A stretch of 64,000 nucleotides of DNA from Vicinamibacterales bacterium. GTDB lineage: Bacteria > Acidobacteriota > Vicinamibacteria > Vicinamibacterales > UBA2999. The notes below the pieces were generated by a model. The model saw only the letters and a program-made list of their open reading frames with translations. It was not told where the DNA came from and ran no database searches. The DNA lies in the NCBI GenBank assembly GCA_035495795.1, contig DATJFF010000009.1, forward strand, positions 9,394-73,393, read 5' to 3'. Positions 21,432 to 64,000 of the stretch are shown here, one piece after another. Each line of letters starts with the position of its first letter. The stretch's first letter is position 1. The position numbers were made by a program, and so were the translations under genes.

Positions 21432-21572
21432 GACGGGGGTTCAAAGCACGGGGGTTCAAAGCACGACGGGTTCAAAGCACGACGGGTTCAAAGCACGACG
21501 GGTTCAAAGGTACGTACGTTCAAGGCACGAAGTTCGAAGGCGCGAGCGTTCAAGGCCACGAAGGTTCTGCGT
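21432..21572 (+). repeat. Tandem array of about 9 units of a 15-16 bp repeat (GGGTTCAAAGCACGAC), sense to the GH63-like gene
   Basis: GTTCAA cores at 21439, 21454, 21470, 21486, 21502, 21518, 21532 (GTTCGA), 21548 and 21564 (GTTCTG). The array starts 1 nt after the TAA stop, and units decay with distance. Confidence 0.9.
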
Positions 21573-21642
21573 CGGGGGTGAGCTCAAAAGAGCGCTCTTC
21601 AGAATAGGGCAGCGCGAAGTGTCTCCGCGGCCGTCGCGCAGC

Positions 21643-21770
21643 TCTCAACGAACCCTCGCGTTGAACCTCCGTGCTTTTGAACTCCCGTGATTTGAACCTC
21701 CGTGATTTGAACCTCCGTGATTTGAACCCCTGTGATTTGAACCACCGTGATTTGAACCTACGTGAAAAGA
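21643..21770 (-). repeat. Tandem array of about 7 units (minus-strand GGTTCAAATCACGGA), sense to the FAD-oxidase gene and reverse complement of the 21432-21572 array
   Basis: The plus strand reads CCGTGATTTGAACCT repeated with a 15-bp period. The last unit overlaps the stop and last codons of gene 21758-23335. Confidence 0.9.
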
Positions 21771-23335
21771 ACGCCTGGCGCGAGTTTGCCCGTGGGGTCG
21801 AGCGCGCGCTTGACGGCTCGCATCTCCTCGATGCCTTGCTCGCCGTAGAGCTCTCTTAGCAGCTGCTGCTTGAGCCGGCTGCGGCCGACGCCGTGCTCGG
21901 CGAGCGGCGCGCCGCCCATCGCGATCACGCCGCGGGCGATGTCGTGGATCGCCTGCCGGCCGGCCTCGACGTCCGCGAGCGACCGCGGGATCAGGTTGGG
22001 GTGCAGGTTGCCGTCGGAGAAGTGGCCCCAGATGGCGCAGTCGAGACCCCGCCGGGTGAATGCCTCGCGGTAGAGCCGCAGCGAATCGGCGAGCCGATCG
22101 AACGGCACCACCGGATCGGCAGCCGTCTTCTGGATCTCGGGGTGGACGCGTGCTTTCGCGGCGCCGACCAGCGCGTTGACGCTCGCCGGCACCGCCTCGC
22201 GCAGTCCGAACAGCCGCTCGGCGCCGCGGTCATCGTCGGGGAGTGCCACGATCGGATCGTCGGCGACGCCGGCGCGCGCGAGCCGCGACGCTAACGTCTC
22301 GAGCGTGGTGTCTTCGCCGCCGGGCACCTCGATCTGGATCAGGAGCAGTACCGAACCCGCGCCCGGACGCGGAGTCTGGGCCCGCGCGAACGCCTCGTCG
22401 GGAACGGCAGCCAGCGAGCGCGCATCCATGTACTCGACGGCAGACACGTCGAGCGCTCCTGTTCCCCGGCTACCGGTGCCGACACGGGTTTGGGCCGCTG
22501 CCGCAAGATGGCGTCGTCCGATCGACTCCGAGCACAGCGCGGCTGTGAGCGCGATTGCCTGTTCATCCCCAGCACAGCGGACCAACGCCACCAGCCGCCG
22601 CGGCCGCGGCACGACGCGCAGTCGCGCGGCGGTGATCACGCCCAGCGTTCCCTCCGAGCCGATGAACAGGTCGATGAGATCCATCCCCGGCGCCGCGAAG
22701 TAGCCGGCGGAGAGCTTGGCGACCTCCGGCATGCGAACGGCCGGGACCCGAACCCGCACCGCCGCTCCGTCGCTCGCCTCGATCGTGAATCCGCGTTCTG
22801 AATCCGCGAAAATCTTGCCGCGTTCGAGATCCAGCACATCGCCGCTGGCGAGCACGACCGCGATCGCCTCCACCCAGTTGCGCGTCGAGCCGTACTTGAA
22901 CGTGGCTGCGCCGGCGGCGTTGGTCGCAATCGTGCCGCCGACAAAGGCGCCGTCGTAGGTCGGAACGGGCGGGTAGTACAGGCCCGACGCCGTCAGCGCC
23001 TGTTGCAGCACCGCCAGCGGAACACCGGCGCCAACGTGCACGCAGCCATCCGCGGGTGTGCCGATCGCCGAGAGCGCGCGGGTGCTGACGAGCACCTCGC
23101 CGCGTGGCGTGGCGCCCCCGGTCAGCGAGGACTGCGCGCCGATCGCAAGCACCCGACCGGATGCGGCAACGATGGCGGCGACTTCGGCTTCGTCGTGAGG
23201 GAACACGATGCCCGGCGATCTCCCGCCCGGCACATGTGCAGCGTCGCTCAGGAATGAGGCGAGGATGGCGGGATCACGTTCAATCGGAGGCACCGCCGCC
23301 GGCCGCGGCCGTCTCGCACGCAGGCGCGAAGTCAC
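21758..23335 (-). CDS. FAD-linked oxidase (GlcD / D-lactate dehydrogenase-like)
   Basis: 525 aa. N-terminal FAD-binding PCMH-type region (...VFPHDEAEVAAIVAASGRVLAIGAQSSLTGGATP...). C-terminal oxidase domain ending ...HGVGRSRLKQQLLRELYGEQGIEEMRAVKRALDPTGKLAPGVLF. Confidence 0.85.
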   Translation of the reverse strand: MTSRLRARRPRPAAVPPIERDPAILASFLSDAAHVPGGRSPGIVFPHDEAEVAAIVAASGRVLAIGAQSSLTGGATPRGEVLVSTRALSAIGTPADGCVHVGAGVPLAVLQQALTASGLYYPPVPTYDGAFVGGTIATNAAGAATFKYGSTRNWVEAIAVVLASGDVLDLERGKIFADSERGFTIEASDGAAVRVRVPAVRMPEVAKLSAGYFAAPGMDLIDLFIGSEGTLGVITAARLRVVPRPRRLVALVRCAGDEQAIALTAALCSESIGRRHLAAAAQTRVGTGSRGTGALDVSAVEYMDARSLAAVPDEAFARAQTPRPGAGSVLLLIQIEVPGGEDTTLETLASRLARAGVADDPIVALPDDDRGAERLFGLREAVPASVNALVGAAKARVHPEIQKTAADPVVPFDRLADSLRLYREAFTRRGLDCAIWGHFSDGNLHPNLIPRSLADVEAGRQAIHDIARGVIAMGGAPLAEHGVGRSRLKQQLLRELYGEQGIEEMRAVKRALDPTGKLAPGVLFT

Positions 23336-23357
23336 CAGCCGATTCTGTCGCAGTTCG

Positions 23358-23420
23358 GACGAACGCCCGTACGTTGAAGCCTCGGGCCTTGAAGCCGTGG
23401 GCTTTGAACCTCGATGAGAA
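23358..23420 (-). repeat. Degenerate third array of the GGTTCAA(A/G)G family, sense to the histidine kinase gene
   Basis: The minus strand reads ...GAGGTTCAAAGCCCACGGCTTCAAGGCCCGAGGCTTCAACGTACGGGCGTTCGTCCGAAC..., beginning about 8 nt after the kinase stop (23429). Confidence 0.7.
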
Positions 23421-23428
23421 CGGTCGCG

Positions 23429-25099
23429 TTAGCGGGTGGCCCCGCGCACTGCGAGCGCCGCTTCGAGCGCCTCCGGGCTGACGGGCTTCACGAGATGCTG
23501 GTCGAATCCGGCCGCGCGCGACGCGTCGATATCGGCCTGGCTGCCGTAACCGGACACGGCGAGGATGAGCGCCCCGGACGTCTCCGGCCGCGAGCGAAGG
23601 ATCGCGACCAGCTCGCGCCCGCTCATGTCGGGCAATCCGATGTCCAGCAGCATCGCATCGGGGTGGAACTGGGCGGCCGCGGTCAGCGCCGACCCCGCGT
23701 CGTAGCTGACCTGGGCCTCGTGCCCGTGAAGCTCCAGCAACATGCGCAGCGTTTCCGCGGCATCGACGTTGTCTTCGACGATCAGGACGCGGCGGCTCGG
23801 GCTCGCCTCGAGACGGGGCCGATCCGGAGCCGCGGCCGGCTCGTGCTCCGATGAGCACGGCAAGCGCATCTCGAACTCGGATCCCAGACCGGGGCCCGAG
23901 CTGCGCGCCAGTACCTGCCCGCCGTGGAGTTCGATCAGCCGCTTGACCAGGGCGAGGCCGATCCCGAGGCCGCCCTGGGTGCGGTGCAGCGAGTGATCCC
24001 CCTGGGTGAAGGGGTCGAACACGCGCGGCAGCAGCTCGGGGTCGATTCCCTGGCCGCTGTCACGCACCACGAGCGTCGCATCGCTGCCGTGGCGCTCCAG
24101 CTCGATGCCGATCGTGCCGCCCGGCTCCATGTACTTCGAGGCGTTGTTGAGCAGGTTCGCCACCGCCTGGGCGAGACGCTCGAGATCCGCATCGACGAAG
24201 AGCGGCTCGGGCCACTGCCGCCGTTCGACGCGATGATGGCGGGAGGCGATCAGCGGCGCGCTCATCTCGAGTGCGCGATCCACGGCCTCTTCCAGCCGCA
24301 TCGGCCGTCGTTGCAGCACGATCTTCCCGCGGGATATCCGCGAGAGATCGAGCAGGTCATCGACCAGCCGGCGCAGGTGCTCGACCTGCCGTTCGATCAC
24401 CGACTGGGCCCAGATGCGCGTCGCGGGTTCGAGCTCGTCCTGGCGCATCACCTCGAGGGCGTTGCGAATCGGGGCGAGCGGGTTGCGGAGCTCGTGGGCG
24501 AGGAGCGCGAGAAACTCATCCTTGGCGCGATCGGCGTCGTCGAGCTCCTGCATCCGGTGGCGCAGCTCGAGCTCGAGCACACCGCATTCGTCGATCTTGC
24601 TCCTCAACCGGTCGTTGGTCTGGGCCAGCTCACGGTTGCGCTCGCGGACGCGCAACTCGAGCTGTTCGCGCAATTTCGACAGGCGCTGCTCGGCGTTGCG
24701 GAGCTCCCGCAAGTCCTCGATCGCGAGCAGTACTAACACCTCGTCATTGTTCCGGACGAGGTCGGGCATCAAGCGGGCTTCGATCGCACTCTCGCGTGGG
24801 CGAAGCGTTACCAGAAATGACGTGCGTTCGTAGCGCAAACACCGCAGCCACTGTCCAAAGGCCTGCCCGTCCTGCGTAGACAGGAGGGCAATGAGCGGCA
24901 GTCGCGGTACGGCGACGATCTCTTCTCCGAGCAGCTCGACGGCGGCGTTGTTGGCGTTGAGGATTGCGCCATTCAACGACAGGATGAGGTAAGGGAACGG
25001 AGCCCGATTCAGCAGCTCGAACGCGAACTCGAGCAGCTCCGGCTTACGGTGGCCCGTTGCAACCTCGGGCCTGCGGTTAGGGAAGGCCGCGTCGAACAT
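23429..25099 (-). CDS. Hybrid sensor histidine kinase / response regulator
   Basis: 556 aa. PAS-like N-terminus and coiled coil. H-box FLALLAHELRNPLAPI. N box NLLNNASKY. G boxes DSGQGI and GGLGIGL. C-terminal receiver with LLDIGLPDMSG. Lies 24 nt downstream of the CheB-CheR gene. Confidence 0.9.
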   Translation of the reverse strand: MFDAAFPNRRPEVATGHRKPELLEFAFELLNRAPFPYLILSLNGAILNANNAAVELLGEEIVAVPRLPLIALLSTQDGQAFGQWLRCLRYERTSFLVTLRPRESAIEARLMPDLVRNNDEVLVLLAIEDLRELRNAEQRLSKLREQLELRVRERNRELAQTNDRLRSKIDECGVLELELRHRMQELDDADRAKDEFLALLAHELRNPLAPIRNALEVMRQDELEPATRIWAQSVIERQVEHLRRLVDDLLDLSRISRGKIVLQRRPMRLEEAVDRALEMSAPLIASRHHRVERRQWPEPLFVDADLERLAQAVANLLNNASKYMEPGGTIGIELERHGSDATLVVRDSGQGIDPELLPRVFDPFTQGDHSLHRTQGGLGIGLALVKRLIELHGGQVLARSSGPGLGSEFEMRLPCSSEHEPAAAPDRPRLEASPSRRVLIVEDNVDAAETLRMLLELHGHEAQVSYDAGSALTAAAQFHPDAMLLDIGLPDMSGRELVAILRSRPETSGALILAVSGYGSQADIDASRAAGFDQHLVKPVSPEALEAALAVRGATR

Positions 25100-25123
25100 T
25101 TGCCTGGCCGCGCAGGGGCAGCA

Positions 25124-31860: not shown

Positions 31861-32960
31861 CAGCGCGGCTTGCGAGCCGCCTCCGCCTCCTGCGCGCGGG
31901 CGCCGCGCAGCACTCCCTCGAGCCCGTAGTTCGCCTCGTGACACGCGTACTCGTAGACCTGCTCACCCGGCGCCATGGCGCTGAAGACCAGCTCACCGGT
32001 GAACGGTGTCGCGAACGTCGTCGGATCCTCGACCGTGAAGCGGTAGTTGATGGTGTTCGCGTCGCGTCGATTCAGCCGCTCGACGACCTTCAGGTTCTCC
32101 CACGAGTTGCGGAACCCGTGCTGCTGGTAGAAGTTCGTCGTCTCGATCACCAGCGTGTCACCCTCCCAGCGCCCGATCGAATCGCCGAACCACTTGCGCA
32201 CGCTCGGGGGCGGGTGCGTGCCGCTCATCCGGACGACGCGCGCGTCGTGGACCATCTCGGTGAGGATGATGATGGCGTCCTTCGACTGCACGATCTGGTA
32301 GTTGTTGTTGTAGAAGTAGTTCGGCAGCATCGGCGGCCCGGCGTTGTTGCCGAACGAGGTGATGCAGCGCTCGCCGAGCGGGCGCAGTTCCGGGTGATCG
32401 AATTCGCCGCCGGCCGCCTTGCGCGCCGCCTGCACCGCCGCGATCCGCTCCCGGGCCGCCGCGGTGTACGCGGGGACGCGGCCGTCGGGCGGGTCGATGA
32501 TGATCGAGCTGCGCGGCTGGCCGTCCACCCGCAGCACCGACTCACCGGGAGCGATCCAGAACGCGTTGTAGCCGCCGACCACGCCGGCGCCAACCTGCCA
32601 GACGCGCTCCAGATACGTCGGCTCGGCGTTCGGGCTCTTGCGCGCCTCGCCGCCGACCGGCGGCGCGCTGCGATTCGGGTCGCTGTCCTGCTCGCGGGCG
32701 TCGATTGCGGCCTTGGTCTTCGTCTCGTCGTCGCGGGCCTGTTCCTCGGTGAGCACCAGAGGGCGGCCCTGGCCGAGCCGCTCGAACGGCGTGATCGTGG
32801 CGTTGGTCCAGTTGCCCTGCAGATCCGGTTTGCCGTCGGCGGTGCGAGGGACGGCGCCGGCGCGTGGTGCGGGCTTCTGCCCCGGCGCGGCAGGGGCCTG
32901 GGCGCCGGCGGCGGCGAGCGCGAGAACGGCGGCGGCGACGGTGGCTCCGATGACCCTCAT
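31860..32960 (-). CDS. Exported protein of unknown function, paralogue B
   Basis: The ORF track extends to 33431. ATG 32960-32958 (MRVIGATV...) forms an ATGA overlap with the upstream gene. 366 aa. Signal peptide AAVLALAAAGAQA. Shares GKPDLQGNW, GDSIGRWEGDTLVIETTNF and TVEDPTTFATPF blocks with the upstream paralogue. Confidence 0.8.
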   Translation of the reverse strand: MRVIGATVAAAVLALAAAGAQAPAAPGQKPAPRAGAVPRTADGKPDLQGNWTNATITPFERLGQGRPLVLTEEQARDDETKTKAAIDAREQDSDPNRSAPPVGGEARKSPNAEPTYLERVWQVGAGVVGGYNAFWIAPGESVLRVDGQPRSSIIIDPPDGRVPAYTAAARERIAAVQAARKAAGGEFDHPELRPLGERCITSFGNNAGPPMLPNYFYNNNYQIVQSKDAIIILTEMVHDARVVRMSGTHPPPSVRKWFGDSIGRWEGDTLVIETTNFYQQHGFRNSWENLKVVERLNRRDANTINYRFTVEDPTTFATPFTGELVFSAMAPGEQVYEYACHEANYGLEGVLRGARAQEAEAARKPR

Positions 32961-34007: not shown

Positions 34008-35369
34008 ATGGCAGACATCAAGGCTGCGGCTGATGCGCTCCGCGGCAATTTTTCCGGTGACGTGCTCGTCGCGGCCGACCCGGCGTTCGACGCCTGCCGC
34101 CGTGTCCACAACGGCATGATCGACCGCCGGCCGGCCCTTATCGCCCGCTGCCGCGGCGTAGGTGACGTGCAAGCGGCGGTCCGGCTCGCCCGCGACCACC
34201 AGCTGGAGATCGCGGTCCGCGGCGGCGGTCACAACGTCGCCGGCAACGCCGTGTGCGAGGGCGGTCTGATGATCGACCTGGCGGGAATGCGCGGAGTGCA
34301 TGTCGATCCCGCGGCGCGCCGCGCTCGCGCCCAGGGCGGGGCCACCTGGGCCGACTACAACCGCGAGACGCAGCTGTTCGGCCTGGCCAGCACCGGGGGT
34401 GTCGTCTCGACAACCGGCGTCGCGGGGCTGACGCTCGGAGGCGGGCTCGGGCACCTGATGGGCAAGCACGGGATGGCTGTCGACTGCCTTCGTGGGGCCA
34501 CCATGGTCACGGCGTCGGGCGACGTGGTCCGCGCCGGCGCCGACGAGCACCCGGATCTCTTCTGGGCGATTCGGGGTGGCGGCGGCAACTTCGGCGTGGC
34601 GGCGTGGCTCGACTTCGAAGTGGCGCCGGTCGGACCGGTCGTGACCGGCGGACTGGTCGCCCATCCATTCGCCGCGGCCCGCGACGTGCTTCGTTTCTAC
34701 CGCGATCTCACGGCCAACCTGCCCGACGAGCTCATCGCGTTTGGCGGGCTCCTGCACGGCCCGGACGGCACCAGGTTGGCGGCCATCGCGGTCTGCCACT
34801 GCGGCGACCTGGAGAGCGGCCGCGCCGCGACCGATCCCGTCAAGCGCTTCGGGTCGCCGGCGATGGATGCGATCGGGCCAATGCCGTACTCGGTCGTCAA
34901 CACACTATTCGATCCCGGGTTCCCGCGCGGCGCGCTCAATTACTGGAAGTCCAACTTCCTCGCGGCCCTGACCGACCAGGCCATCGACGGCATCATCGCC
35001 CAGTTCGAGTCCTGTCCGTCGCCAATGAGCGCGCTGCTCCTCGAGCACTTCCACGGCGCAGCCACGCGCGTCGCGCCGACCGCCACCGCGTTTCCGCACC
35101 GCAGCGTCGGCTACAACTGCCTGATCATCAGCGAGTGGATGGATCCGGCCGCGACCGATGTCAACGTGAAGTGGGCGCGCGACACGTACACGGCGATGTC
35201 GCCGCACTTTGCCAGCGGGCGGTATGCCAACTACCTCAACGCCGATGAAGTCGGGCAGGCCGATGCCGTGTCCGCGGCCTTCGGCCCGAACGCGGCGCGC
35301 CTGCGCGAGGTGAAGCGCAAGTACGATCCGGACAACGTGTTTCACTTGAACCAGAACATCCGGCCGTGA
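34008..35369 (+). CDS. FAD-binding oxidoreductase with BBE (berberine-bridge-like) C-terminal domain
   Basis: The ORF track starts at 33915. ATG 34008 is preceded by AGGAG. 453 aa. FAD_binding_4-type region (IAVRGGGHNVAG...). C-terminal YANYLNAD...LREVKRKYDPDNVFHLNQNIRP. Confidence 0.88.
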   Translation: MADIKAAADALRGNFSGDVLVAADPAFDACRRVHNGMIDRRPALIARCRGVGDVQAAVRLARDHQLEIAVRGGGHNVAGNAVCEGGLMIDLAGMRGVHVDPAARRARAQGGATWADYNRETQLFGLASTGGVVSTTGVAGLTLGGGLGHLMGKHGMAVDCLRGATMVTASGDVVRAGADEHPDLFWAIRGGGGNFGVAAWLDFEVAPVGPVVTGGLVAHPFAAARDVLRFYRDLTANLPDELIAFGGLLHGPDGTRLAAIAVCHCGDLESGRAATDPVKRFGSPAMDAIGPMPYSVVNTLFDPGFPRGALNYWKSNFLAALTDQAIDGIIAQFESCPSPMSALLLEHFHGAATRVAPTATAFPHRSVGYNCLIISEWMDPAATDVNVKWARDTYTAMSPHFASGRYANYLNADEVGQADAVSAAFGPNAARLREVKRKYDPDNVFHLNQNIRP

Positions 35370-38300: not shown

Positions 38301-38395
38301 ACCCGCTGGAGAACATCGCCGACATCCGCAAGACCCGGACGGTCGTGAAGGACGGCGTCGTGTATCAGCTCGACGCGTTGCTGAAGCGGCCTTAG
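35366..38395 (+). CDS. PD40/TolB-type beta-propeller fused to a metal-dependent amidohydrolase domain
   Basis: About 1000 aa. The listed start GTG 35366 overlaps the upstream stop (GTGA). ATG 35387 is an alternative. Signal peptide. Many PD40-like repeats (AWSPDGRRLAF, YWSPDGTRLAFSS, AWSPDGREIAFVS...). C-terminal amidohydrolase with PGIIESHTHL. Confidence 0.88.
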   Translation: MIRRDRTMSMQKIGNGRSALGRTLLGLVVIAACGALLRGQAQGREVRLAIREGTSMAAAVSPDGKTIVLDLLGALWTTSGDGGPARRILEDGYDAHLPAWSPDGRRLAFQAYLRDTWHIWVMNPDGSGLQEVTTGPFDDREPYWSPDGTRLAFSSDRSGNYDIWTLTLASGEVKRLTNSGANDSMPAWSPDGREIAFVSDRQERGIYARTVDSDAERLLVRDATTVWSPMWTPDGKAVAYVSVSGATSKLVMGGTTISDSGEDVFPFRPTWVGADMVYTADGVIKRRPQSGGAARPVPFAADVAFTRAAFTPKAPVFAPDGPQKVRGLMHPVVSPDGARVAFAALGDLWVLSTSGGEATPERLTNDVFVEMHPMWSPDGNLLAYSSDRGGEMAVWVRDMRTGQDRKIIGGGGTASFSPDGGRLAYLDSASQLRVVDVKTLEGRKVHERLMEPGRPSWSPDGRAVVMSALHPYSTRFREGTNEVLWVQVEPNPSATGRDAFAPDRWFDPLPHKSIGMRENLGPVWSPDGTQMAAIIDGYLATFPVARDGTPAGPPRRVSSDMASSPSWAGDSRRVLYQALDRFRLVDLADGSVRDIVPRMTWEARKTTGAVTVHAGRLFDGRGTETRSGVDIVIDGNRIRQVEPHRDDLHRGTVVDAQSGTVVPGIIESHTHLSKEYGQVLGRIWLSFGITTVRNPATNPFEANEERESLASGVRIGPRVVTTGEPLDGTRIYYPGGVALDGGAMVDNYMSRAQALGFDFVKTYVRLPDLLQKRIIAAAHQAGMPVTSHEIYPAVAYGADGVEHIRGTSRRGFTPKNSETRHTYHDVIDLLAASGMTLTPTIGIQGGHQLLTLKDGSWLDDARIKTLFPATASEPSRALRAKPSTPADIAAREALVAPQERLVSALHKAGGRIIAGTDSPINPYGLSLLLEIEHYVRGGLTPAEALLTVTAVPAQAMGLGAELGTIEPGKLADLVVVDGNPLENIADIRKTRTVVKDGVVYQLDALLKRP

Positions 38396-38806: not shown

Positions 38807-38809
38807 CGC

Positions 38810-42389: not shown

Positions 42390-42394
42390 TCTTG

Positions 42395-44100: not shown

Positions 44101-44111
44101 TGAACTGTCAA

Positions 44112-48571: not shown

Positions 48572-48718
48572 AGGAAACCACGAAGGCACGAAGGACACGA
48601 AGGAAACCACGAAGCTATTCTTGGGAAGCACGCGGGATCCAAGTCACGACACACGCGTGACACCCCCAAGAATCTTCGTGTCTTCCTTCGCGCTCTTCGT
48701 GCCTTCGTGGTTTCTTTT
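48570..48718. repeat. 149-bp composite palindrome whose arms are tandem CACGAAGG-type decamers (probable bidirectional terminator)
   Basis: The left arm 48570-48625 and the reverse complement of the right arm 48665-48718 align at about 85% identity. The 39-nt centre contains a sub-palindrome GTCACG...CGTGAC (48643-48661). The arms touch the stop codons of both convergent genes. Confidence 0.85.
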
Positions 48719-50729
48719 ACTTCGCCGGGAGGCGGTACGCGACCAGCTCCCCCGAGTAGGTGCCGCCGCTGATGGCCACGACGAGATACTGACGGCCGTT
48801 CAGCATGTAGGTCATCGGCGAGCCAGTCTGGGGCGCGGGCATGTACACGGCGCCGACCTCCTGGCCGGTCGCCTTGTCGTAGGCGCGCAGCATTGCGCCG
48901 CGGACGCCGGAGGGCGTCGGTCCGAAGCTGCCCTCGCCGGCTATCACCAGCGTCTTCGTGACCAGCGTTCCGACGCTGCCGGTTCGCCCGGTGCGCGGGA
49001 TCTGCAGGCCCTTGAGCGCGGGGTGGTTGCGAATCACGTCCGGCGTCTCGCCGTGCGGGACCTGCCAGAGGAACTCTCCCCGTTTGAGATCGATGGCGGA
49101 GATTTGCCCGTACGGCGGCTTGATCAGCGGCAGTCCCTGGACCGTGAGGGTCGTGACCGCACTGCCGCCGTCGCTGCCTGCCGATCCGGAACCGCCGCTC
49201 CGCCGCACGCCAGTGGCCACGGTGCCCTGGTGATAACGAAAGTCCGTGATCTCGGGCGGTGGGGGCATCAGGCCCAGCGCGCTGACTTGTGCCTGTGACG
49301 AGACGTACAGCACCTGGGTTTCGGGATCGTACGAACCGCCCTGCCAGTTCGTGGCGGCGCCCTGGGCGGCCAGCGTGAGGGTCGCGATCGGCCCCTCGGC
49401 GCGGCTCACCGACGGCGGCGTGAACATCGGGCCGATGCGGTAGTGGGCGATCAGCCGTTCGGCCTCGCCACGCAGCTCCGGCGTGAAGTCGATCAGGAAG
49501 TCCTTCGAAAAACCCTGCCGCTCGTAAGCCGGGGGCTTCGTCGGAAACGGCTGCGTCGGCGAGTACCACTCGCCGGGTGTGTCGCCGCCCGGCGCCGGCC
49601 TCTCCTCGATCGGCCAGACCGGTTCGCCCGTCTCGCGGTTGAACACGTACACGAAGCCCTGTTTGGTGAGCTGGGCCAGCGCCTTGATCGGCCGGCCGTT
49701 GACGACGATGTCGGCGAGGATCGGCGCGCACGGAATGTCCATGTCCCAGATCCCGTGGTGCACGAGCTGGTAGTGCCATTTCCGCCGGCCAGTCCGGATG
49801 TCCACTGCGACAATGCTCTCGGCGAAGAGGTTCGCGCCGGGGCGGTGCCCGCCGTAGTAGTCGCCGGTCGGAAGCTCCACCGGCAGGTACGCAAGTCCGA
49901 GCGATTCATCGGCCGAGATCTGCGCCCAGACGCCGGTGTTGCCGGAATAGGCGTTCGAGCCGTCGAGCCACGTGTCGGCGCCGAACTCGCTCGGCCGCGG
50001 AATGGTGTGAAAGGTCCACAGCCGCTTGCCGGTGCGCACGTCGTAGCCGCGGACGTACCCCTTCACGTTGGTCTTGCTCTTGGGGTTCGCGCCGGTCTGG
50101 AACGCGGCGCCAACGATGATCACGTCGCGCGTGACGAGCGGAGTGGCGTGCAGGCCTACCGCGCCGCTCAGGGGATCGACGTCCTGATCGAAATCGCGCA
50201 TCAGATCGACCTGTCCGTCCAGGCCGAATCCGCCGAGCCGCGCGCCGGTCTGCGCGTCGAGCGCAACCAGGCGATAGCCCGGCGTGACGTAGTAGATGCG
50301 CGCGTCTCGACCGTCGGTCCAGTACGACAAGCCGCGCCCCGAGAACTGCCGCGGCGCGACGCTGCCGCGCTCGCCTTCGTCGAGGCTGTGCACCCACTTC
50401 AGCTCGCCGGTTGCAGCATTGAGCGCCACCACCGCCCGGCGCGTCCCGGCGGTGGAGTAGAGCATGCCATTCACCATCAGCGGCGTGGACTGGAAGACGT
50501 ACTCGGGCCGCGGTCCCAGGTTGTCGGTCTTGAAGCGCCACGCGACTTCGAGCCGGCCGAAGTTCGAGGCGTCGATTTCAGACAGGGGCGCGTAGCGCGT
50601 GTGGCCGAGATCGCCTCCGTACGATCGCCACTCCTGGCCGCTCGTGCCCGATTGAGCGCGCGGCGCGGCGGTGAGCGCCACTGCCGTCAGCGCGATCGCA
50701 ACGATTCGGGACAGTGGTAGACGCTTCAC
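48717..50729 (-). CDS. PQQ-dependent dehydrogenase (quinoprotein, glucose/sorbosone dehydrogenase-like beta-propeller), exported
   Basis: 670 aa. Signal peptide. N-terminal WRSYGGDLGHTRYAPL...VAWRF...STPLMVNGMLY and repeated W-motif propeller blades. Confidence 0.85.
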   Translation of the reverse strand: MKRLPLSRIVAIALTAVALTAAPRAQSGTSGQEWRSYGGDLGHTRYAPLSEIDASNFGRLEVAWRFKTDNLGPRPEYVFQSTPLMVNGMLYSTAGTRRAVVALNAATGELKWVHSLDEGERGSVAPRQFSGRGLSYWTDGRDARIYYVTPGYRLVALDAQTGARLGGFGLDGQVDLMRDFDQDVDPLSGAVGLHATPLVTRDVIIVGAAFQTGANPKSKTNVKGYVRGYDVRTGKRLWTFHTIPRPSEFGADTWLDGSNAYSGNTGVWAQISADESLGLAYLPVELPTGDYYGGHRPGANLFAESIVAVDIRTGRRKWHYQLVHHGIWDMDIPCAPILADIVVNGRPIKALAQLTKQGFVYVFNRETGEPVWPIEERPAPGGDTPGEWYSPTQPFPTKPPAYERQGFSKDFLIDFTPELRGEAERLIAHYRIGPMFTPPSVSRAEGPIATLTLAAQGAATNWQGGSYDPETQVLYVSSQAQVSALGLMPPPPEITDFRYHQGTVATGVRRSGGSGSAGSDGGSAVTTLTVQGLPLIKPPYGQISAIDLKRGEFLWQVPHGETPDVIRNHPALKGLQIPRTGRTGSVGTLVTKTLVIAGEGSFGPTPSGVRGAMLRAYDKATGQEVGAVYMPAPQTGSPMTYMLNGRQYLVVAISGGTYSGELVAYRLPAK

Positions 50730-50760
50730 GGCGTCATCCTACACCCCGGCGGTGGTGGGG

Positions 50761-50829
50761 GAAGGCAAACACGGAAGGCAAAAGGCAAAAGGCAAAAGGC
50801 AGAAGGCAGAAGGCAGAAGGCAGAAGGCA
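50761..50829 (-). repeat. Heptamer array, 9 units of (A/G)AAGGCA on the plus strand (TGCCTT(C/T) on the minus strand)
   Basis: GAAGGCA aacacg GAAGGCA AAAGGCA AAAGGCA AAAGGCA GAAGGCA GAAGGCA GAAGGCA GAAGGCA, read directly. Confidence 0.92.
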
Positions 50830-50943
50830 ACGCCCCGGTTGCTGACCACACGGGGCGTCGATCGAACCAGAGCGAAAAGAACCTGCGGAAGACAGCGACT
50901 GCGGGCCGGAAGGACCGCGTTCGGGACTGCTCAGTCCCGCCCG

Positions 50944-51022
50944 TGGTCCCCTCCCGATCAGCGAAGTCCCTCCCGGCCAGCGAGGCCCCTCCCGATTTGC
51001 GAAGCCAACCTCCCGGCTGGCG
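50944..51022 (+). repeat. Phased CTCCCG-box module (fourth occurrence)
   Basis: CTCCCG at 50951, 50970, 50989 and 51010 (spacings 19, 19, 21), each followed by a ..GCGAAG-like segment. It abuts the stop of gene 51027-52190. Confidence 0.8.
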
Positions 51023-51026
51023 CGCG

Positions 51027-52190
51027 TCAGCGTGAAGTGCGGGCGCGAACGTTGAGCGTCACGTTGAACTCCCCGCGGTTATCGGGAAGGTGGTCGTCGT
51101 TCACGCCAAGGTAGATCCTGCCGCTCACCGGCGCTGTCACCGTCGTGCGGTTGCCGATGAAGATCGGCGGGTACTCGTCGATCTTCGCAATCAGACCCCC
51201 GGCGAGCTGTCCCTGGATGGGCGCATCCGGCGCGGTCCGGCCGCGTCGCGATCCGGCCGGCGTCGCCGTGTCTCCGGCATCGTCGCTCATCTGGATTTCG
51301 CCCGAGGCGTTGATGGTGACGACCTCGCCGGCGCGGACGGTGACGCCGGTGTCGGTCCAGCGCTGCTGGGCGTTGACGCGGACCTGCTGCGGCCCATAGG
51401 ACTGCTCACCGCTCGTGCCCGTCACGCCAGCGGCCGAGAACTCACGTCGCGAGATCACGCCGTTCCGGTCGGCGTCGATCTCGGCAAAGCTCGGTCGCGA
51501 CCAGTGCCACTCGTTGCGCTCGAGGCTTCCGTTCCGGTTGTAGTCGAGGGTCTGGAACTCGTCGTAGTTCTCGAAACTGGGCTGCTGCCCGACTACTTCG
51601 TAGCGGCTCAACACCCCGTCGTTGTTGCGATCGAGCCAGCGGAAGTCGTCGAGGCTGCCATGCCATTCGTTGCGCGTCACCCGGCCGTCGTTGTTGGAGT
51701 CCAGGTCGTCAAATCGGTCGTCGCGATCATCGTCTCGATTCGCGCCCAGGAACTCGCCGACCGAGATCGCGTTGTCGCGATTGCGGTCGATCCGGCGGAA
51801 CGTCTCGAGATCGAAGTGCCACTCGTTAGCGGTCAGGCGGCCGTCGCGATTGTGATCGAGATCGTGAAACCCCTGCTCGGTCCAGCTGATCTCCCCCTCG
51901 TAACGGTTGGGCGGATGATCCGCCGTTCCGTAGTCGGTGGTGCGCTGGCCGCCAATGCGCAGTTCGTCGCCGCTCAGCACGCCATCGCCGTTCCAGTCGT
52001 GGTTGACGAAGGACTGGTTGGAGCCCGTCCACTCGTCGCGGGTAATACGACCGTCGTGGTTGGTGTCCATCGCTTCGAAGCGCATGCGCGAGGACTGTTG
52101 CCCTTCTGCGGAGGCAATCGGCCCTGCGGCCATGCCCACGGTCAGCAGAGTGGCGATCGAGCACGTCAGCACCAAAGGACGAGCACGCAT
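51027..52190 (-). CDS. Exported protein with eight EF-hand Ca2+-binding loops and a C-terminal PA-IL/LecA-like lectin-type domain
   Basis: The ORF track extends to 52241. ATG 52190 is preceded by GGGAGGAA. 387 aa. Loops DTNHDGRITRDE, DWNGDGVLSGDE, DHNRDGRLTANE, DRNRDNAISVGE, DSNNDGRVTRNE, DRNNDGVLSRYE, DYNRNGSLERNE and DADRNGVISRRE. The C-terminal ~110 aa (...VTVRAGEVVTINASGEIQMS...GRIYLGVNDDHLPDNRGEFNVTL) look lectin-like. Confidence 0.85.
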   Translation of the reverse strand: MRARPLVLTCSIATLLTVGMAAGPIASAEGQQSSRMRFEAMDTNHDGRITRDEWTGSNQSFVNHDWNGDGVLSGDELRIGGQRTTDYGTADHPPNRYEGEISWTEQGFHDLDHNRDGRLTANEWHFDLETFRRIDRNRDNAISVGEFLGANRDDDRDDRFDDLDSNNDGRVTRNEWHGSLDDFRWLDRNNDGVLSRYEVVGQQPSFENYDEFQTLDYNRNGSLERNEWHWSRPSFAEIDADRNGVISRREFSAAGVTGTSGEQSYGPQQVRVNAQQRWTDTGVTVRAGEVVTINASGEIQMSDDAGDTATPAGSRRGRTAPDAPIQGQLAGGLIAKIDEYPPIFIGNRTTVTAPVSGRIYLGVNDDHLPDNRGEFNVTLNVRARTSR

Positions 52191-52294
52191 GAGTTCGTTC
52201 CTCCCAGTTGGGACGATGCACAGTTCGTACCTGCATGGCACAGCCGAAGGGCTTCGCAGTTGACGAGCCGGGTCGATCGCCGCCAGACTTTCGC

Positions 52295-54895: not shown

Positions 54896-57463
54896 ATGGT
54901 CGATGCGGTCGTCGTCGGCGCCGGTTTCGCGGGCCTGTACCTGCTCCATCGCCTGCGGGAGATCGGATGCACGGCGGTTGCCCTGGAGAGCGCGGATGAT
55001 GTCGGCGGCACTTGGTACTGGAACCGGTACCCGGGCGCGCGCTGCGACATCATGACCGTGGACTACTCGTACAGCTGGGATCCCGACCTCGAAGCCGAGT
55101 GGCAGTGGTCCGAGAAATACGCGACCCAACCCGAGATTCTCCGATACCTGCAGCACGTCGCCGACAAGCACGATCTGCGGCGTGACATCCGGTTCTCGAC
55201 ACGTCTCGAGCGCGCCGAGTGGCGTGACGACACCCAGTCGTGGACGGTGCGCACCAGCCACGGCGACGACATCACATGCCGCTTTCTCGTCATGGCCAGC
55301 GGATGCCTGTCGGTGCCAAAGGCCGCGGACGTCCCAGGCGTCGAACGGTTTGGCGGCGCCGTGTACTACACGTCGCGCTGGCCGCACGACGGCGTGGATT
55401 TCACCGGCCGCCGTGTTGCCGTGATCGGCACGGGATCGTCAGGGATCCAGTCGATTCCAATCATCGCGAAACAGGCCGCTGCGCTGACGGTGTTCCAGCG
55501 CACGCCGAACTTCTCGCGGCCGGCCAGGAACGGCCCGGTTCCGGAGGCGAAGATCGAAGCCTACCGCCGCGATCCCGCCGCCTACCGCGAGGCGGCGCGG
55601 TGGACCCGGCTGGGCGTGACGGTCCCGTCGATCGAAAAGAACACCCTCCAGGCGTCGGAAGCCGAGCGGCTCGCGGTTTACGAGGCGATGTGGGAATCCG
55701 GCGACCTGCTGCCGCCGCTCTTCCCGGACGTGCTGCTGAACGAGGCCGCCAACGAGACGCTGTGCGAGTTCCTGCGCGGCAAGATCCGATCGATCGTCAA
55801 GGATCCGGTGACGGCCGACACGTTGTGTCCGAAGGACCACTATTACGGCACCAAGCGGCCCTGCCTCGACTCCGGGTACTACGAGACGTTCAACCTTCCG
55901 CACGTCAGGCTCGTCGATCTGCGGACTACGCCGATCGTCACGATCACCGACGCCGGCATCGACACCACTGCGGGCTCGATCCCGTTCGACGCGATCGTGT
56001 TTGCGACCGGCTTCGATGCGATGACCGGGGCGGTCGTGTCGGCCGACGTCCGCGGCCGGAACGGCATGTCGCTGGCAGCGAAGTGGGCGGACGGGCCGCG
56101 GAATTACCTCGGACTGATGTCGGAGGGTTTCCCGAACTTCTTCACGATCACCGGACCTGGAAGTCCCTCTGTGCTCTCCAACATGGTGGTCTCGATCGAA
56201 CAGCACGTGGACTGGGTGATCGACTGCGTGCGTCACATGCGCGACCAGGGCGTGGTGATGGTCGAGCCCACCACCGCAGCCGAAGACGGCTGGGTGCAGC
56301 ACGTCAACGACTTCGGCGACCTGACGCTGTACCCGCGGGCGCGATCGTGGTACACGGGCGCCAACGTTCCCGGAAAGCCGCGAGTGTTTCTTCCATATGT
56401 CGGCGGCGTCGATGGCTATCGGCGCGTCTGCGGGGAGGTGAGCAGGCGCGGCTACCTGGGCCTGGCCTTCGACGGGCCGGGTGGGAAACGCTGCAACGAC
56501 GGCGTCATCTGCCGGTTGAAGCCCGACGTGCAGCTGATGCTGACGATGATCCAACGGCTGGGACTTCCGTCGTACGAGACGCTTCCCGTCGATGCCGCAC
56601 GCGCGCAGGCGAGAGCCGTTGCCGCGGCGCGTCCACCCGGACCAGAAGTCGGTGCGATCGCGGACGGGACGTTTCCGGGCGCAGCTGGCCAGCTGAGCTA
56701 TCGCGCCTATCGGCCTCCCACGCCCGGACCGCACCCGATCGTGGCGTACTTCCACGGTGGTGGGTGGGTGCTCGGTAGCGCCGAGTCCGACGCCCCTTTC
56801 TGCCGCGATCTGTGCGTGCGCAGCGACGCGATCGTGATGTCGATGAACTACCGCCATGCGCCAGAAGCGCGCTTCCCGGCGGCGGTGGAGGACGCGTGGG
56901 CTGCGGTCCGATGGATTGCCGCGCATGCGGAATCGCTCGGCGGCGCACCGGGGCGCCTCGCAGTGTGCGGATGGAGCGCCGGCGCAAATCTCGCCGCCGT
57001 CGTCTGCCAGCTCGCGCGCGACGCCGGAGCGCCGCGGATTGACGGGCAGGTGCTGGTCGCGCCGGTGATCGACGCCGATTTCTCGCGTCAATCCTGTACG
57101 GTCAACGGCGACGGTTACGGCCTCACGTCGGCGTTGCTGCGCTGGTTCTGGGATCAGTATGCCGACGAGCCCGACCGCACCGATCCGCGCGCCTCACCGC
57201 TGCAGGCGGCGGAGCTCGGCGGCCTGCCGCCCGCGCTCGTCGTAACTTGCGAGTTCGATCCGCTCCGCGACGGGGGCGCGGCCTATGCCGAGGCGATGAT
57301 TGCCGCCGGCGGCGACGTGCGGCACCTCGATTGCGCCGGGCAGATTCACTCGTCACTGCTGGCCGTCGGCGCGCTCCCCTCCGGCGCCCCGGCCCGGGAG
57401 GAGATGGCAACCGTACTCCGCCGCTTCCTTCGCGACACGATGGTCGCGTCGACCGCCAGCTGA
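54896..57463 (+). CDS. Fusion of a type I Baeyer-Villiger (flavin) monooxygenase and an HSL-family (family IV) esterase
   Basis: 855 aa, starting 2 nt after the pepF stop. BVMO part (about aa 1-530): [21 protein letters not shown], fingerprint [12 protein letters not shown], second Rossmann GTGSSG. Esterase part (about aa 545-855): HGGGW oxyanion motif, GWSAG nucleophile elbow, DPLRD, GQIH. Confidence 0.88.
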
Positions 57464-57470: not shown

Positions 57471-57505
57471 TTTCTGCCTTCCGCCTTCTGCCTTTTGCCT
57501 TGCCT
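57471..57505 (+). repeat. Heptamer array TGCCTT(C/T), about 5 units, sense to the BVMO-esterase gene
   Basis: tttcTGCCTTCCGCCTTCTGCCTTTTGCCTTGCCtcc starts 8 nt after the stop. It is the reverse complement of the array at 50761-50829. Confidence 0.85.
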
Positions 57506-57537
57506 CCAGGTTGCTGGTTTTCCAGCAACCTGTTCGT

Positions 57538-62020: not shown

Positions 62021-62030
62021 CCCGGCCCAG

Positions 62031-62078
62031 CTTCGAGAACCCCGAGAACCCCGAGAACTTCGAGAACCCCGAGAACCC
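62031..62078 (+). repeat. 9-bp tandem repeat C(T/C)(T/C)CGAGAA, 5 units
   Basis: CTTCGAGAA CCCCGAGAA CCCCGAGAA CTTCGAGAA CCCCGAGAA ccc, starting 10 nt after the qor stop. Confidence 0.92.
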
Positions 62079-62102
62079 GTATACTGGCCCCGGCTCACGC
62101 AG

Positions 62103-64000
62103 ATGGCCACCTGCTCGCGCCGCGCCCGCGCTGCCCTGTTCGCAGTCGGCGTGTGCGGATCGGTGGCGGTGGCGCTGACCGGCGCCCAGACCCCATCCCC
62201 GCCTCCGGCGCCTCAGGCGGCTGTCGCGGCTGTCACGCCGCGAGCGATGCTGGACACGTACTGCGTCGGCTGCCACAACCAGCGGTTGAAGACCGGCGGC
62301 CTCGCGCTCGACGCCATCGACGCCACGGCGCCTGAGGCGAATCCCGAGGTGTGGGAACGTGTCATCACCCGACTGCGTGCGGGATCGATGCCCCCAGCCG
62401 GAAGGTCTCGGCCGGAACCGGCGGTCTACGACGCCGTTGCCGGCACGCTCGAAGCGCGCCTCGATCGCGCCTGGAGCGCGAACCCGTCGCCAGGCCGCGT
62501 GAACGCGGTCCACCGTCTGAATCGCACGCAATACGCCAACGCGGTCCGAGATCTTTTCGCGCTCGACCCGCAGGCCTTCGACGTGATGTCGCTGCTGCCG
62601 GGCGACGAGACCGCCGACGGCAGCTTCGACAACTTTGCCGACGTGCTGACGATCTCGACCGCTCACCTCGAACGGTATCTGTCGGCGGCGCGGCAGGTGA
62701 CGCGGCTGGCGACTGGCCTGGCGCCGTCCCGCCCGTCGCTCGACACCTTCGAGATTCCACTCCATGTTGTCCAGGACGATCGCCAGAGCGACGATCTCCC
62801 GTTCGGCTCCCGCGGCGGCGTGGCGGTCCACCACGAGTTTCCAGTCGACGGCGAATACCTGATCAAGGTGCGGCTGCGGCGGCAGTATCAGGACTACCTG
62901 ATGGGCATGGGCTGGCCGCAGCAACTCGACGTGCGGCTCGATGGCAAGCTCCTGAAGCGGTTCAGCGTCGGCGGCCAGGCGCCAGGCACGCCCGCCGCGT
63001 CCAGTTACGCCGGCGACGGCGAGCCCGGCTTTGCCGGCGCTCCCGAGTGGGAAACCTACATGCAGTTGACGGGCGACGCCGGCCTCGAAGTGCGCGTGCC
63101 GGTGAAGGCAGGCCCTCGCGTCGTTGGCGTGTCGTTCGTGCGCGAGCTGTGGGAACCGGAAGGCCTGCCGCAGCCGCTGCAGCGCGGACGCGTGCTCACC
63201 GACGATCAGATCTACATGGGTAATGCGGCGGTCGGCGCGGTTCAGATCGGCGGGCCGTATCGAATCGAGAGTACGGCGGCGAACATGCCGAGTCGCCGCG
63301 CCATCTTTACCTGCCAGGCGTCCCCCGACTGCGCCTCGAAGATCCTGTCGAGGCTGGCGCGACGGGCCTACCGCCGGCCGATCACGAAGGCCGACGTCGA
63401 CACGCTGCTCGAGTTCTATGAGAAGGGCCGGGGTGACGGCGGCAGCTTCGAAGCCGGCATCCAGTTCGCGCTCGAGCGCATGCTCGTGGATCCGGATTTC
63501 CTGTTGCGCGTGCAACGCGATCCTCGAGAACCTCGAGAACCCCGAGAACCTCGAGCCCACCGCCTCACCGATGTCGAGCTCGCATCGCGGCTGTCGTTTT
63601 TCCTGTGGAGCAGCCTGCCAGACGAGGCGCTGCTGGACCTGGCCGAGCGTGGGGAGCTGTCGAAGCCGGCGGTGCTCGACCAGCAGGTGCGGCGCATGCT
63701 GGCGGATCCGCGCGCGACCGCGAACCTGGTGGACGATTTCGCGGCTCAGTGGCTCAACCTGCGCCGCGTCGGCGAAGTCACCGCGCATCCTGACGTCTAC
63801 CCGGACTTCGACGACAACCTGCTGGACGCGTTCAGGAAGGAGACCGCGCTGTTCATCGCCAGTACGCTCGACGAAGACCGCAGCGTCTCGGACCTGCTCC
63901 GCGCCGACTATACGTTCGTCAACGAGCGGCTGGCGCGCCACTACGGTATTCAAGGCATCTACGGGCCCCGCTTCCGCCGCGTCACGCTCCCGAACCCGGA
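62103..64000 (+). CDS. DUF1592/DUF1595/DUF1587-type protein with an N-terminal cytochrome c motif (partial, runs off the right edge)
   Basis: Absent from the ORF track because no stop is reached. ATG 62103 (MATCSRRARAALFAVGV...). Heme motif CVGCH. Family blocks LRAGSMPP, HRLNRTQYANAVRDLF, LASRLSFFLWSSLPDE, FAAQWLNLR. The large minus-strand ORF 61653-63953 is its antisense shadow. Confidence 0.85.
   Translation, partial: MATCSRRARAALFAVGVCGSVAVALTGAQTPSPPPAPQAAVAAVTPRAMLDTYCVGCHNQRLKTGGLALDAIDATAPEANPEVWERVITRLRAGSMPPAGRSRPEPAVYDAVAGTLEARLDRAWSANPSPGRVNAVHRLNRTQYANAVRDLFALDPQAFDVMSLLPGDETADGSFDNFADVLTISTAHLERYLSAARQVTRLATGLAPSRPSLDTFEIPLHVVQDDRQSDDLPFGSRGGVAVHHEFPVDGEYLIKVRLRRQYQDYLMGMGWPQQLDVRLDGKLLKRFSVGGQAPGTPAASSYAGDGEPGFAGAPEWETYMQLTGDAGLEVRVPVKAGPRVVGVSFVRELWEPEGLPQPLQRGRVLTDDQIYMGNAAVGAVQIGGPYRIESTAANMPSRRAIFTCQASPDCASKILSRLARRAYRRPITKADVDTLLEFYEKGRGDGGSFEAGIQFALERMLVDPDFLLRVQRDPREPREPREPRAHRLTDVELASRLSFFLWSSLPDEALLDLAERGELSKPAVLDQQVRRMLADPRATANLVDDFAAQWLNLRRVGEVTAHPDVYPDFDDNLLDAFRKETALFIASTLDEDRSVSDLLRADYTFVNERLARHYGIQGIYGPRFRRVTLPNP

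Follow-up and report, generated by a model that had tools for sequence, protein, structure and literature searches.

Tandem-repeat palindromes at gene 3' ends in a Vicinamibacterales genome as candidate gene-less copies of a GxxExxY nuclease cassette

We analyzed a 64,000-nt stretch from the genome of a Vicinamibacterales bacterium (Acidobacteriota; contig DATJFF010000009.1 of assembly GCA_035495795.1, positions 9,394 to 73,393), which we will call the window. The window has a GC content of 64-70% and encodes genes of ordinary metabolic and signalling types, with short tandem arrays in several of its intergenic spacers. An earlier reading of the same DNA (the original prediction) held that almost all of these arrays begin just after a stop codon, in the sense orientation of the gene that they follow, and it proposed that they act on transcripts. 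We lean instead towards the view that the window holds gene-less copies of a selfish cassette at gene 3' ends, similar to REPINs (palindromes built from repetitive extragenic palindromes, or REPs) and their RAYTs (REP-associated tyrosine transposases), along with a separate GC-rich, REP-like composite element, and that these do not form one host system.

We detected arrays across the window with Tandem Repeats Finder (TRF), which recovered every array listed in the original prediction, and we also read the array sequences directly. Stop positions come from home-made open reading frame (ORF) calls based on the GC content of third codon positions (GC3). This is a heuristic, and we checked the calls with Pfam domains. 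Because these domains extend to the C-termini of the adjoining genes, the stop codons beside the arrays are reliable.

Two palindromes between convergent genes

At 48569-48719 (no strand), a complete palindrome without a gene fills the spacer between the genes for an XDH FAD subunit and a PQQ dehydrogenase. Its arms (48569-48634 and 48654-48719) are separated by a loop of 19 nt. Each arm contains four CACGAAGG-type units and begins with AAACCACGAAGGCACGAAGG, and the two arms include both TAA stop codons. TRF called arrays at 48579-48604 and 48685-48709 (CACGAAGGA and its reverse complement), each 7 nt from a stop. The inverted repeat formed by the arms (I3) is 66 nt long and 77% complementary. 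UUUCUUUU follows the stem on both strands, with an A-rich run and a U-rich run flanking it.

The second palindrome, near 21.5 kb, is larger. Its 5' arm (21432-21567, plus strand) lies directly after the stop (21431) of a GH63-like gene; the TRF array at 21433-21567 is 1 nt from that stop. The units are 16 or 15 nt long (GGGTTCAAAGCACGAC, then GTTCAAGGCACGAA), and each consists of a core, CACGRMG, and a TTCAAA spacer. A central region of about 93 nt (21568-21660, no strand) forms the loop of the RNA fold. The 3' arm (21661-21765, minus strand) has 15-nt units whose sense sequence is GGTTCAAATCACGGA. It overlaps the FAD-oxidase gene at 21758-23335 (minus strand) by 8 nt and contains its TAG stop and last codons. 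Relative to this minus-strand gene, the same array reads as a 5' arm.

At the RNA level, each convergent pair gives a very long hairpin (-165.6 kcal/mol and z = -8.6 at 21.5 kb; -90.3 kcal/mol and z = -14 at 48.6 kb), as had been expected for convergent neighbors that carry the same repeats. Single arrays have folding scores like those of shuffled sequences and are unstructured.

The original prediction described the repeat units of the window as largely unrelated. This does not hold: in a motif scan, the core CACGRAG(R) turned up in both the 48.6-kb and the 21.5-kb arrays, and the 37-, 41-, and 88-nt units are copies of another single element (described below). The 21.5-kb units are CACGGAGG or CACGACGG followed by a spacer (TTCAAAT, 7 nt, or TTCAAA), and the 48.6-kb units (CACGAAGG) belong to the same family. 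We will call this family X, and we write X...X' for an arm that is followed by its reverse complement.

X palindromes in diverse metagenomes

A scan of metagenomes that required three perfect CACGRAGR units returned 120 loci with GC contents of 0.37 to 0.72. One of these is a 460-kb contig that was assigned to Methylobacter by protein matches (86-90% identity). The 5' arm has 2-4 tandem, purine-rich units of 8-9 nt, with the consensus TCACCACGRAGR-CACGRAGR-N-CACGRAG; the consensus of the full arm is (T)TCACCACGRAGRCACGRAGRNCACGRAG, and its outer stem positions vary between loci yet stay complementary. Arms most often have three units, a count that the scan threshold biases. The loops are 8-445 nt long and are mostly unrelated between loci. 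Across all loci, the inverted partner is downstream (X...X') in 66 sense clusters and only upstream in 2.

The palindrome at 48569-48719 belongs to this family, in which the 5' arm starts with (T)CACCACGRAG, contains 2-4 tandem CACGRAGR units, and has a reverse-complement arm downstream. It aligns with the arms of 11 other loci, with ACCACG-AG invariant. The same 26-nt arm sequence recurs across phyla. Contig L202 contains three X copies within 12.9 kb, in both orientations, with loops that are 81-94% identical and with additional outer AATCTCACCAC repeats. Three copies with similar loops in both orientations are the signature of a dispersed, duplicating element. Besides these three copies, conserved internal sequence among X copies was found only at orthologous sites.

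Among X pairs with both neighboring genes within 300 nt (n = 31), 21 lie in co-directional spacers, 9 in convergent spacers, and 1 in a divergent spacer; the background proportions of these spacers are 54%, 24%, and 21%. Of the single X arms, 15 are on the coding strand of their nearest gene and 5 are not. Arms next to a gene start also have their 5' end towards that gene. The idea that orientation is tied to the transcription of each gene therefore fails: the polarity belongs to the palindromes (66 vs. 2), and arms are found at gene starts as well as at stops.

In many loci, a host TAA lies 5-8 nt before the CCACG of the arm (48569 and 48719 in the window; L210, L220, L156, and L152; and L202, positions 470-660). 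GTAG-type REPs are often found at gene 3' ends and can supply stop codons (PMC3733652), and by analogy, the stop codon may come from the end of the X element. CACGRAG-type arrays also follow the orthologous XDH gene in several distant metagenome-assembled genomes (MAGs) of Acidobacteriota, at 60-70% protein identity, and in one MAG (L001), GAAGGCA units adjoin X units. Most members of the X family, as well as the 21.5-kb element, have no U-tract.

Rfam searches with eight X loci gave only sub-threshold matches to generic long hairpins (miRNA precursors), and BLAST of X elements against 72,556 plasmids gave no match. In the literature on the exact repeat strings, GxxExxY, and PDDEXK_3, we found no description of such elements.

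Some X palindromes enclose a nuclease gene

Three X loci with long, similar loops encode a 123-aa protein. This is a GxxExxY protein (TIGR04256, E = 2e-44) of the PD-(D/E)XK type, and it matches PDDEXK_3 in Pfam (PF13366, E = 2.5e-43). The gene within the X loop was GxxExxY/PDDEXK_3 in every gene-bearing locus that we examined, and the catalytic D...ExK residues (D, E, and K) are invariant in the GxxExxY alignment. The one survey that we found described PDDEXK_3 as having an unknown function and as having undergone multiple transfers between bacterial divisions (PMC3424549). A PDB sequence search with the GxxExxY profile gave no match, and we left the AlphaFold model unused (pLDDT 51, low confidence).

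Using tblastn, we found five full copies and two fragments of GxxExxY in the 120 loci. The full copies lie between X and X' (L114, L117, L156, L089, and L183). In all five, the X array ends 0-10 nt before the ATG and the X' array comes after the gene; an X' array also follows the fragment in L161, and the fragment in L204 has the upstream arm only. In one example, the order is host TAA, TCTCACCACGAAGAACACGAAGAGCACGAAG, ATG...TAA, CCTTCGTGCCCTTCGTGGTGG. Both the arm consensus and the arms from the window align with the arms directly upstream of GxxExxY start codons. Conversely, the loci that we fetched by protein similarity to GxxExxY all have bracketing arms (P0308, P0337, and P0359). The cassette can also exactly fill the convergent spacer between SMC_N and YaaH genes, in both orientations in related samples; L210-219 and L220-228 are flipped relative to each other.

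Four more distant GxxExxY genes from IMG/VR carry inverted arrays of other short units. In three of them, inverted arms bracket the gene: L206 (CACAAAG), L208 (CACGGAT), and L209 (AAGGAT). The fourth, L207, has complete ATCAGCG/CGCAGAT hairpins on either side of the gene. Broadening the profile for the IMG/VR scan brought up no loci beyond these four.

We also noticed CATCTGCG/CGCAGAT arrays in a relative of the window at 85% identity (L084, positions 3008-3142, 3821-3906, and 12005-12115). The CGCAGAT unit is the same as the hairpin unit around the GxxExxY gene in the low-GC L207 (1304-1378 and 1851-1969), which hints at a second unit family that is tied to GxxExxY genes.

The original prediction had suggested searching for a protein family that is co-distributed with the arrays. 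GxxExxY genes lie between X arms elsewhere; in the window, tblastn found no GxxExxY at E <= 1e-3, and the two X copies lack a gene in their loops. In our best-supported reading, the 48.6-kb element is probably a gene-less copy of the GxxExxY cassette and the 21.5-kb element a derived one, in the way that REPINs relate to RAYT genes.

Turnover of the arrays between related genomes

A close relative (L081, from a 4.6-Mb contig) is syntenic with the window, and its coding DNA is 93-94.6% identical. Of the arrays, only the CACGAAGG palindrome is kept in L081, with changed unit numbers. The TTCTGCC array is absent and the spacer differs. The 37- and 41-nt arrays are single units there (about one unit for the 37-nt array), and the composite modules are missing. 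Arrays have been gained, lost, or replaced between genomes that are 93-94% identical, which is a fast turnover.

The 151 nt from stop to stop at 48569-48719 are inverted relative to the flanking genes in L081 (12011-12161) and in L085 (4177-4333), among genomes that are 93-97% identical. Since the spacer aligns opposite to its flanking genes in both relatives, the spacer has flipped.

At greater distances, a relative at 87% identity has kept mainly one arm of the 48.6-kb palindrome, and L082 (87% identity) has a degenerate CGAACC precursor of the CGAGAACCC array at the orthologous site. In a relative at 85% identity, an unrelated GGCTTRCG/CATCTGCG array lies directly after the same stop codon.

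Two further observations concern whole genes. First, the window has a 297-nt, repeat-filled spacer at 50742-51022, and L081 has an additional gene at this site (8252-9622), encoding a 456-aa glucose/sorbosone dehydrogenase (GSDH). The repeat-rich spacer is exactly where a gene has been gained or lost. Second, the three-gene operon for an XDH-like molybdopterin oxidoreductase (44491-48571) has protein identities of 57-85% to MAGs L001-L080, which are labelled as Acidobacteriota, Acidimicrobiia, Gamma- or Betaproteobacteria, Planctomycetota, and others. There is almost no synteny beyond the operon; L001 additionally shares the adjacent MatE gene. This suggests that the XDH-like operon has spread horizontally.

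A GC-rich, REP-like composite element

The 37-, 41-, and 88-nt units of the window are copies of one dispersed GC-rich element (element B). It is found in four spacers, at 38.4, 42.4, 44.1, and 50.9 kb, and it has been locally amplified in tandem. Element B combines GATTGG repeats and CCTCCCGA repeats with small hairpins that have TTC loops and carry GTAG motifs. Several of the hairpins in the 88-, 41-, and 37-nt units are preceded by GTAG, and others lack this tag. From their sequences, these four spacers carry a REP-like element that is separate from the X family.

The first copy begins with a tandem, GC-rich, REP-like module of 88 nt (2.9 units; 38396-38684, plus strand), which starts at the stop of the gene at 35366-38395. 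TRF placed this array at 38421-38679, which is 25 nt from the stop, or 0 nt if a partial GCTTCGC unit is counted. Each 88-nt unit has three hairpins of 5-6 bp with TTC loops and GTAG motifs. The composite modules at 38685-38809 (plus strand; GATTGG repeats and CCTCCCGA-N12 repeats) follow, and they abut the stop of the minus-strand gene at 38810-40306.

Two more copies flank the gene for a MatE efflux protein (42706-44100, minus strand). The minus-orientation copy at 42337-42738 consists of a CTCCCGA module, a conserved 102-nt segment (42502-42603), and an array of 4.2 units of 37 nt (42581-42738). This array overlaps the MatE coding sequence by 33 nt, which, together with the 8-nt overlap at 21661, bears out the claim that some arrays reach into the last codons. 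The 37-nt unit holds the last ~5 codons of MatE and its TAG stop, which shows that a local tandem duplication across the stop codon gave rise to it. The plus-orientation copy (44101-44440) lies in a divergent spacer and includes an array of 2.3 units of 41 nt (44121-44213), the 102-nt segment (44188-44289), GATTGGG repeats (44295-44339), and CTCCCGA repeats (44362-44409). Its array adjoins a gene start, not a stop, and had been correctly listed as an exception. The MatE gene is thus bracketed by inverted copies of the 102-nt segment (92% complementary); at each of the two sites, L081 has no more than a minimal version with a single unit.

The fourth copy is an array of 3.1 CCTCCCGA-N12 repeats of 19 nt (50948-51006, plus strand), 20 nt from the stop of an EF-hand gene (51027-52241, minus strand). 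The same module is found at 38741-38800 and 44362-44409. We also noticed that the GATTGG/GATTGGG repeats (38681-38708 and 44295-44339) look similar to the GGGAATC/GGGGAYT heptamers, known from Xanthomonas and Nostoc, that form G-quadruplexes.

Other arrays in the window

A single, degenerate GGTTCAAAG/GCTTCAAGG array lies at 23374-23413 (minus strand), 15 nt after the stop of a histidine-kinase gene (23429-25099, minus strand), and is unstructured. At 50762-50830 (plus strand), CACGGAAGG is followed by (CAAAAGG/CAGAAGG)n, a purine-rich, X-like array with a 7-nt unit, and then by a hairpin at 50832-50860. The PQQ dehydrogenase gene starts 30-45 nt from this array, on the side of the array's 5' end. 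The TRF call within it (AAGGCAA x8, 50775-50830) is 196 nt from a stop, as noted before. The element at 57472-57533 (plus strand) opens with an array of 4.3 TTCTGCC units (57472-57501), which is pyrimidine-rich and unstructured and begins 8 nt after the stop of the gene at 54896-57463. The array is followed by an 11-bp hairpin (57507-57533) that is shared with the convergent gene, and then by UUCGUU. It is plausible that the arrays at 23374, 50762, and 57472 are fragments or variants of the X family.

Five CGAGAACCC units at 62034-62078 (plus strand), also unstructured, lie 13 nt after an ADH stop (62020), and the next start codon is 24 nt further on. The same 9-nt unit reappears 1.4 kb downstream, at 63522-63555 (plus strand; CCTCGAGAA/CCCCGAGAA, 3.8 units). 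This second array is not intergenic: it lies in frame within a PSD-domain gene (DUF1587/1592/1595) and encodes Pro-Arg-Glu (PRE) repeats.

The stretches at 9608-11951 and 31945-32956 have no convincing gene call, and their candidate ORFs have no Pfam match. A CGCGGCC array (5.6 units, 11258-11298) lies within the first of them. A tRNA scan of the window found none, and no Rfam covariance model matched the window at the gathering score.

Placement of the arrays relative to genes

The arrays had been described as usually starting 0-10 nt from a stop codon. The TRF arrays lie at 1, 7, 7, and 8 nt, and others at 13, 15, and 25 nt (the last being the 88-nt array). If free space is redistributed within each spacer, then the arrays are closer to stops than expected by chance (Fisher p = 5e-4), which is driven mainly by the three spacers at 21.4, 42.4, and 48.6 kb.

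As a background set, we used loci totalling 1.39 Mb, gathered by searching for the XDH FAD subunit; their MAGs are in part related to the window and in part unrelated. Convergent spacers have 1.10 arrays per kb, co-directional spacers 0.57, divergent spacers 0.52, and coding sequence 0.04, so arrays are over 10-fold more common in spacers than in coding sequence. In co-directional spacers, 11 arrays are nearer the stop and 5 are nearer the start. The 3' preference of the arrays is thus moderate, with no strict rule.

In 32 of 44 arrays (p = 0.004, from cases that are not entirely independent), the purine-rich strand has its 5' end on the side of the closest gene boundary, and this polarity holds at stops and starts alike. 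A polarity relative to the neighboring genes is real, but the evidence for a strand-coupled rule is only partly independent: four of the nine examples are the arms of two convergent inverted repeats. Because of the geometry of an inverted repeat, both arms are sense to the convergent genes. Two of the three GGTTCAAA cases therefore count as a single event, and so do the two CACGAAGG cases. In our reading, palindrome geometry together with a preference for 3' ends accounts for the sense orientation that follows the genes.

Selfish cassettes or other explanations

The first alternative to the selfish cassette is close to the original prediction: the arrays could be 3'-end elements that are selected by the host, as bidirectional, factor-independent terminators, as 3'-end protection, or as a platform for an RNA-binding protein. 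We think that this is unlikely. Canonical terminators were not above the level of shuffled sequence in a scan of 21-40.9 kb, which leaves this niche open. Very stable hairpins lie between convergent genes, and UUUCUUUU comes after the 48.6-kb stem on both strands. Also consistent with selection by the host are the depletion of X elements from divergent spacers, the preference of single arms for the coding strand (15 vs. 5), and the persistence of CACGRAG arrays after the XDH gene in distant relatives. But a U-tract is missing from most X elements, the single arrays are unstructured, and arms also abut gene starts. A selfish repeat fits better than a termination device of the host because the arrays turn over between genomes that are 93-94% identical, because the identical 26-nt arm is found across phyla and around a nuclease gene, and because multi-copy elements have conserved loops.

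It is quite improbable that the arrays are neutral by-products of slippage in the least constrained DNA, with their orientation due to chance and palindrome geometry. Slippage would not explain why the polarity is 66 vs. 2, why the arm consensus is conserved across phyla and across GC contents of 0.37-0.72, why three units are preferred, why the nuclease gene is precisely nested between arms, or why, in 32 cases vs. 12, it is the purine-rich strand that is turned towards the closest gene. It is consistent with the variation in copy number between relatives, with the 37-nt unit that spans a stop and is single-copy in a relative, with the degenerate CGAACC precursor in L082, and with the rarity of arrays in coding sequence.

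A known mobile class, either classical miniature inverted-repeat transposable elements (MITEs) from a DDE insertion sequence or REPs and bacterial interspersed mosaic elements (BIMEs) mobilized by a RAYT (HUH Y1), is very doubtful. Terminal inverted repeats, the multi-copy state, the GTAG motifs and GC-rich hairpins of the composite element, and the habit of REPs to sit at 3' ends and supply stop codons (PMC3733652) would fit. Against it, X elements were found to contain no gene other than that for a PD-(D/E)XK nuclease, we saw no target-site duplication, the loops are mostly unrelated between loci, there is no match in 72,556 plasmids, and no transposase or RAYT was detected among the Pfam-scanned ORFs of the window (several ORFs have no family match or were unscanned).

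Three narrower ideas were rejected. Only TTCTGCC and CGAGAACCC are C-rich and G-poor, as for Rho rut sites, and the remaining units are purine-rich. The GGA and GAG cores brought to mind an RNA-binding platform of the CsrA, TRAP, or HutP type, for which we found no support. Both arms at 48.6 kb begin at a TAA, which would fit a TA-targeting MITE of the Tc1/IS630 type that restores TAA stops, but the flanks of other loci show no consistent TA duplication.

Several points weigh against the selfish cassette as well. We saw no target-site duplication and no clean pair of empty and filled sites for X elements, so their mobility is putative. The window has no GxxExxY gene. Requiring three perfect units biases the unit counts and the sample, and several GxxExxY loci are one locus in different samples, which leaves about 10 independent ones. 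No direct evidence ties the GC-rich composite, or the arrays at 57472 and at 62034, to the nuclease cassette. The persistence of CACGRAG arrays after the orthologous XDH gene could mean selection at the level of the host, and by its appearance the element at 48.6 kb is a true intrinsic terminator that works in both directions. Finally, the gene calls are heuristic and the sample is 64 kb of the source genome.

How the cassette might work

We favor the selfish cassette, and we envisage that it would work as follows. In a full-length copy, the ATG of the nuclease comes directly after the last unit of the 5' arm, and the 3' arm comes after its stop. The position just after a host stop codon would allow expression by read-through from the host gene, and the GGAGG or GAAGG units, 5-8 nt before the ATG, would act as the ribosome-binding site. 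Insertions at 3' ends would be the least harmful and so would be tolerated. The nuclease would act on the arms, as a hairpin or a cruciform, to copy or maintain them, much as in REPIN/RAYT systems. The units would expand and contract by slippage, and the arms would recombine. Effects on termination or RNA stability would be secondary; some copies are likely to serve secondarily as bidirectional terminators.

More tentatively, GxxExxY proteins might in general be the partner enzymes of a cross-phylum group of tandem-repeat palindromes that has not been recognized. The repeat unit would co-vary with the nuclease lineage (CACGRAG, CACGGAT, ATCAGCG/CGCAGAT, or AAGGAT), the cassette would sit after host stops, and many arrays of the window would be gene-less members.

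If this is correct, then PDDEXK_3/GxxExxY, with thousands of members that are listed as "function unknown," would have a selfish or repeat-maintaining nuclease role. A second class of enzymes would join the REPIN/RAYT paradigm of persistent populations of bacterial repeats. It might also explain fixed-polarity arrays at 3' ends, including the unexplained pattern in Xanthomonas and Nostoc, where the units are different. On the practical side, these elements break short-read assemblies, shift the apparent ends of genes, and can flip entire spacers. They probably act as terminators or as RNase targets, so they matter for annotating the MAGs of soil Acidobacteriota.

Comparison with known systems

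Like a bidirectional intrinsic terminator, the 48.6-kb element has a long stem with A-rich and U-rich runs on both strands and fills a convergent spacer from stop to stop. Unlike these terminators, X stems are 60-130 nt long and are made of tandem units, and most members have no U-tract. Also, X elements are found in co-directional spacers directly upstream of starts, and around a nuclease gene.

MITEs such as the pneumococcal BOX and Neisseria Correia elements are small, non-coding palindromes in spacers, often at 3' ends, and their hairpins can terminate or process transcripts. BOX elements have a variable number of tandem boxB units. X elements are likewise small spacer palindromes with inverted arms. 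They differ from MITEs in that we found no target-site duplication or related DDE transposase, in their mostly unrelated loops, and in having an arm that is shared across phyla.

The original prediction knew of no described system with such properties, but there is a precedent. Rehm et al. (2015, PMC4692102) described arrays of GGGAATC/GGGGAYT heptamers in Xanthomonas and Nostoc that are over-represented in non-coding DNA. Those arrays lie within 50 bp of a stop on the coding strand or overlap the stop, and few of them separate divergent ORFs. Whichever way the nearest ORF points, it is the 5' side of the repeat strand that is turned towards it. Inverted pairs occur, and copy number varies between close species; the function was given as unknown. 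The arrays described here share these positional features (within 50 bp of a stop, on the coding strand, depleted from divergent spacers, and with the 5' side towards the ORF). Their units are different (CACGRAGR, GGTTCAAA-type, TTCTGCC, and CGAGAACCC), and most of them cannot form a G-quadruplex; only the GATTGGG repeats at 44295-44339 and 38681-38708 come close. The preferred copy number is 3 per arm here and 4 there, and no associated gene was reported there.

The other close comparison is with REPINs and the REP-RAYT system (Bertels and Rainey 2011, PMC3116915; Di Nocera et al. 2013, PMC3733652). The partner here is a 123-aa PD-(D/E)XK protein of the GxxExxY family instead of a HUH Y1 transposase, and its mobilization of the repeats is our proposal. 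X arms have 2-4 tandem units of 8-9 nt in place of a single GTAG-tagged hairpin. REPs are imperfect, GC-rich palindromes of 20-40 nt that carry a conserved GTAG (or CGTC) tag at one end; the GC-rich composite of the window resembles them, and the X family has no such tag. The likeness lies in the arrangement: both are dispersed, extragenic palindromes that are often at 3' ends and sometimes supply the stop codon, in both a single small enzyme gene is flanked by the same repeats in inverted orientation, and the units are amplified in tandem, as in BIMEs.

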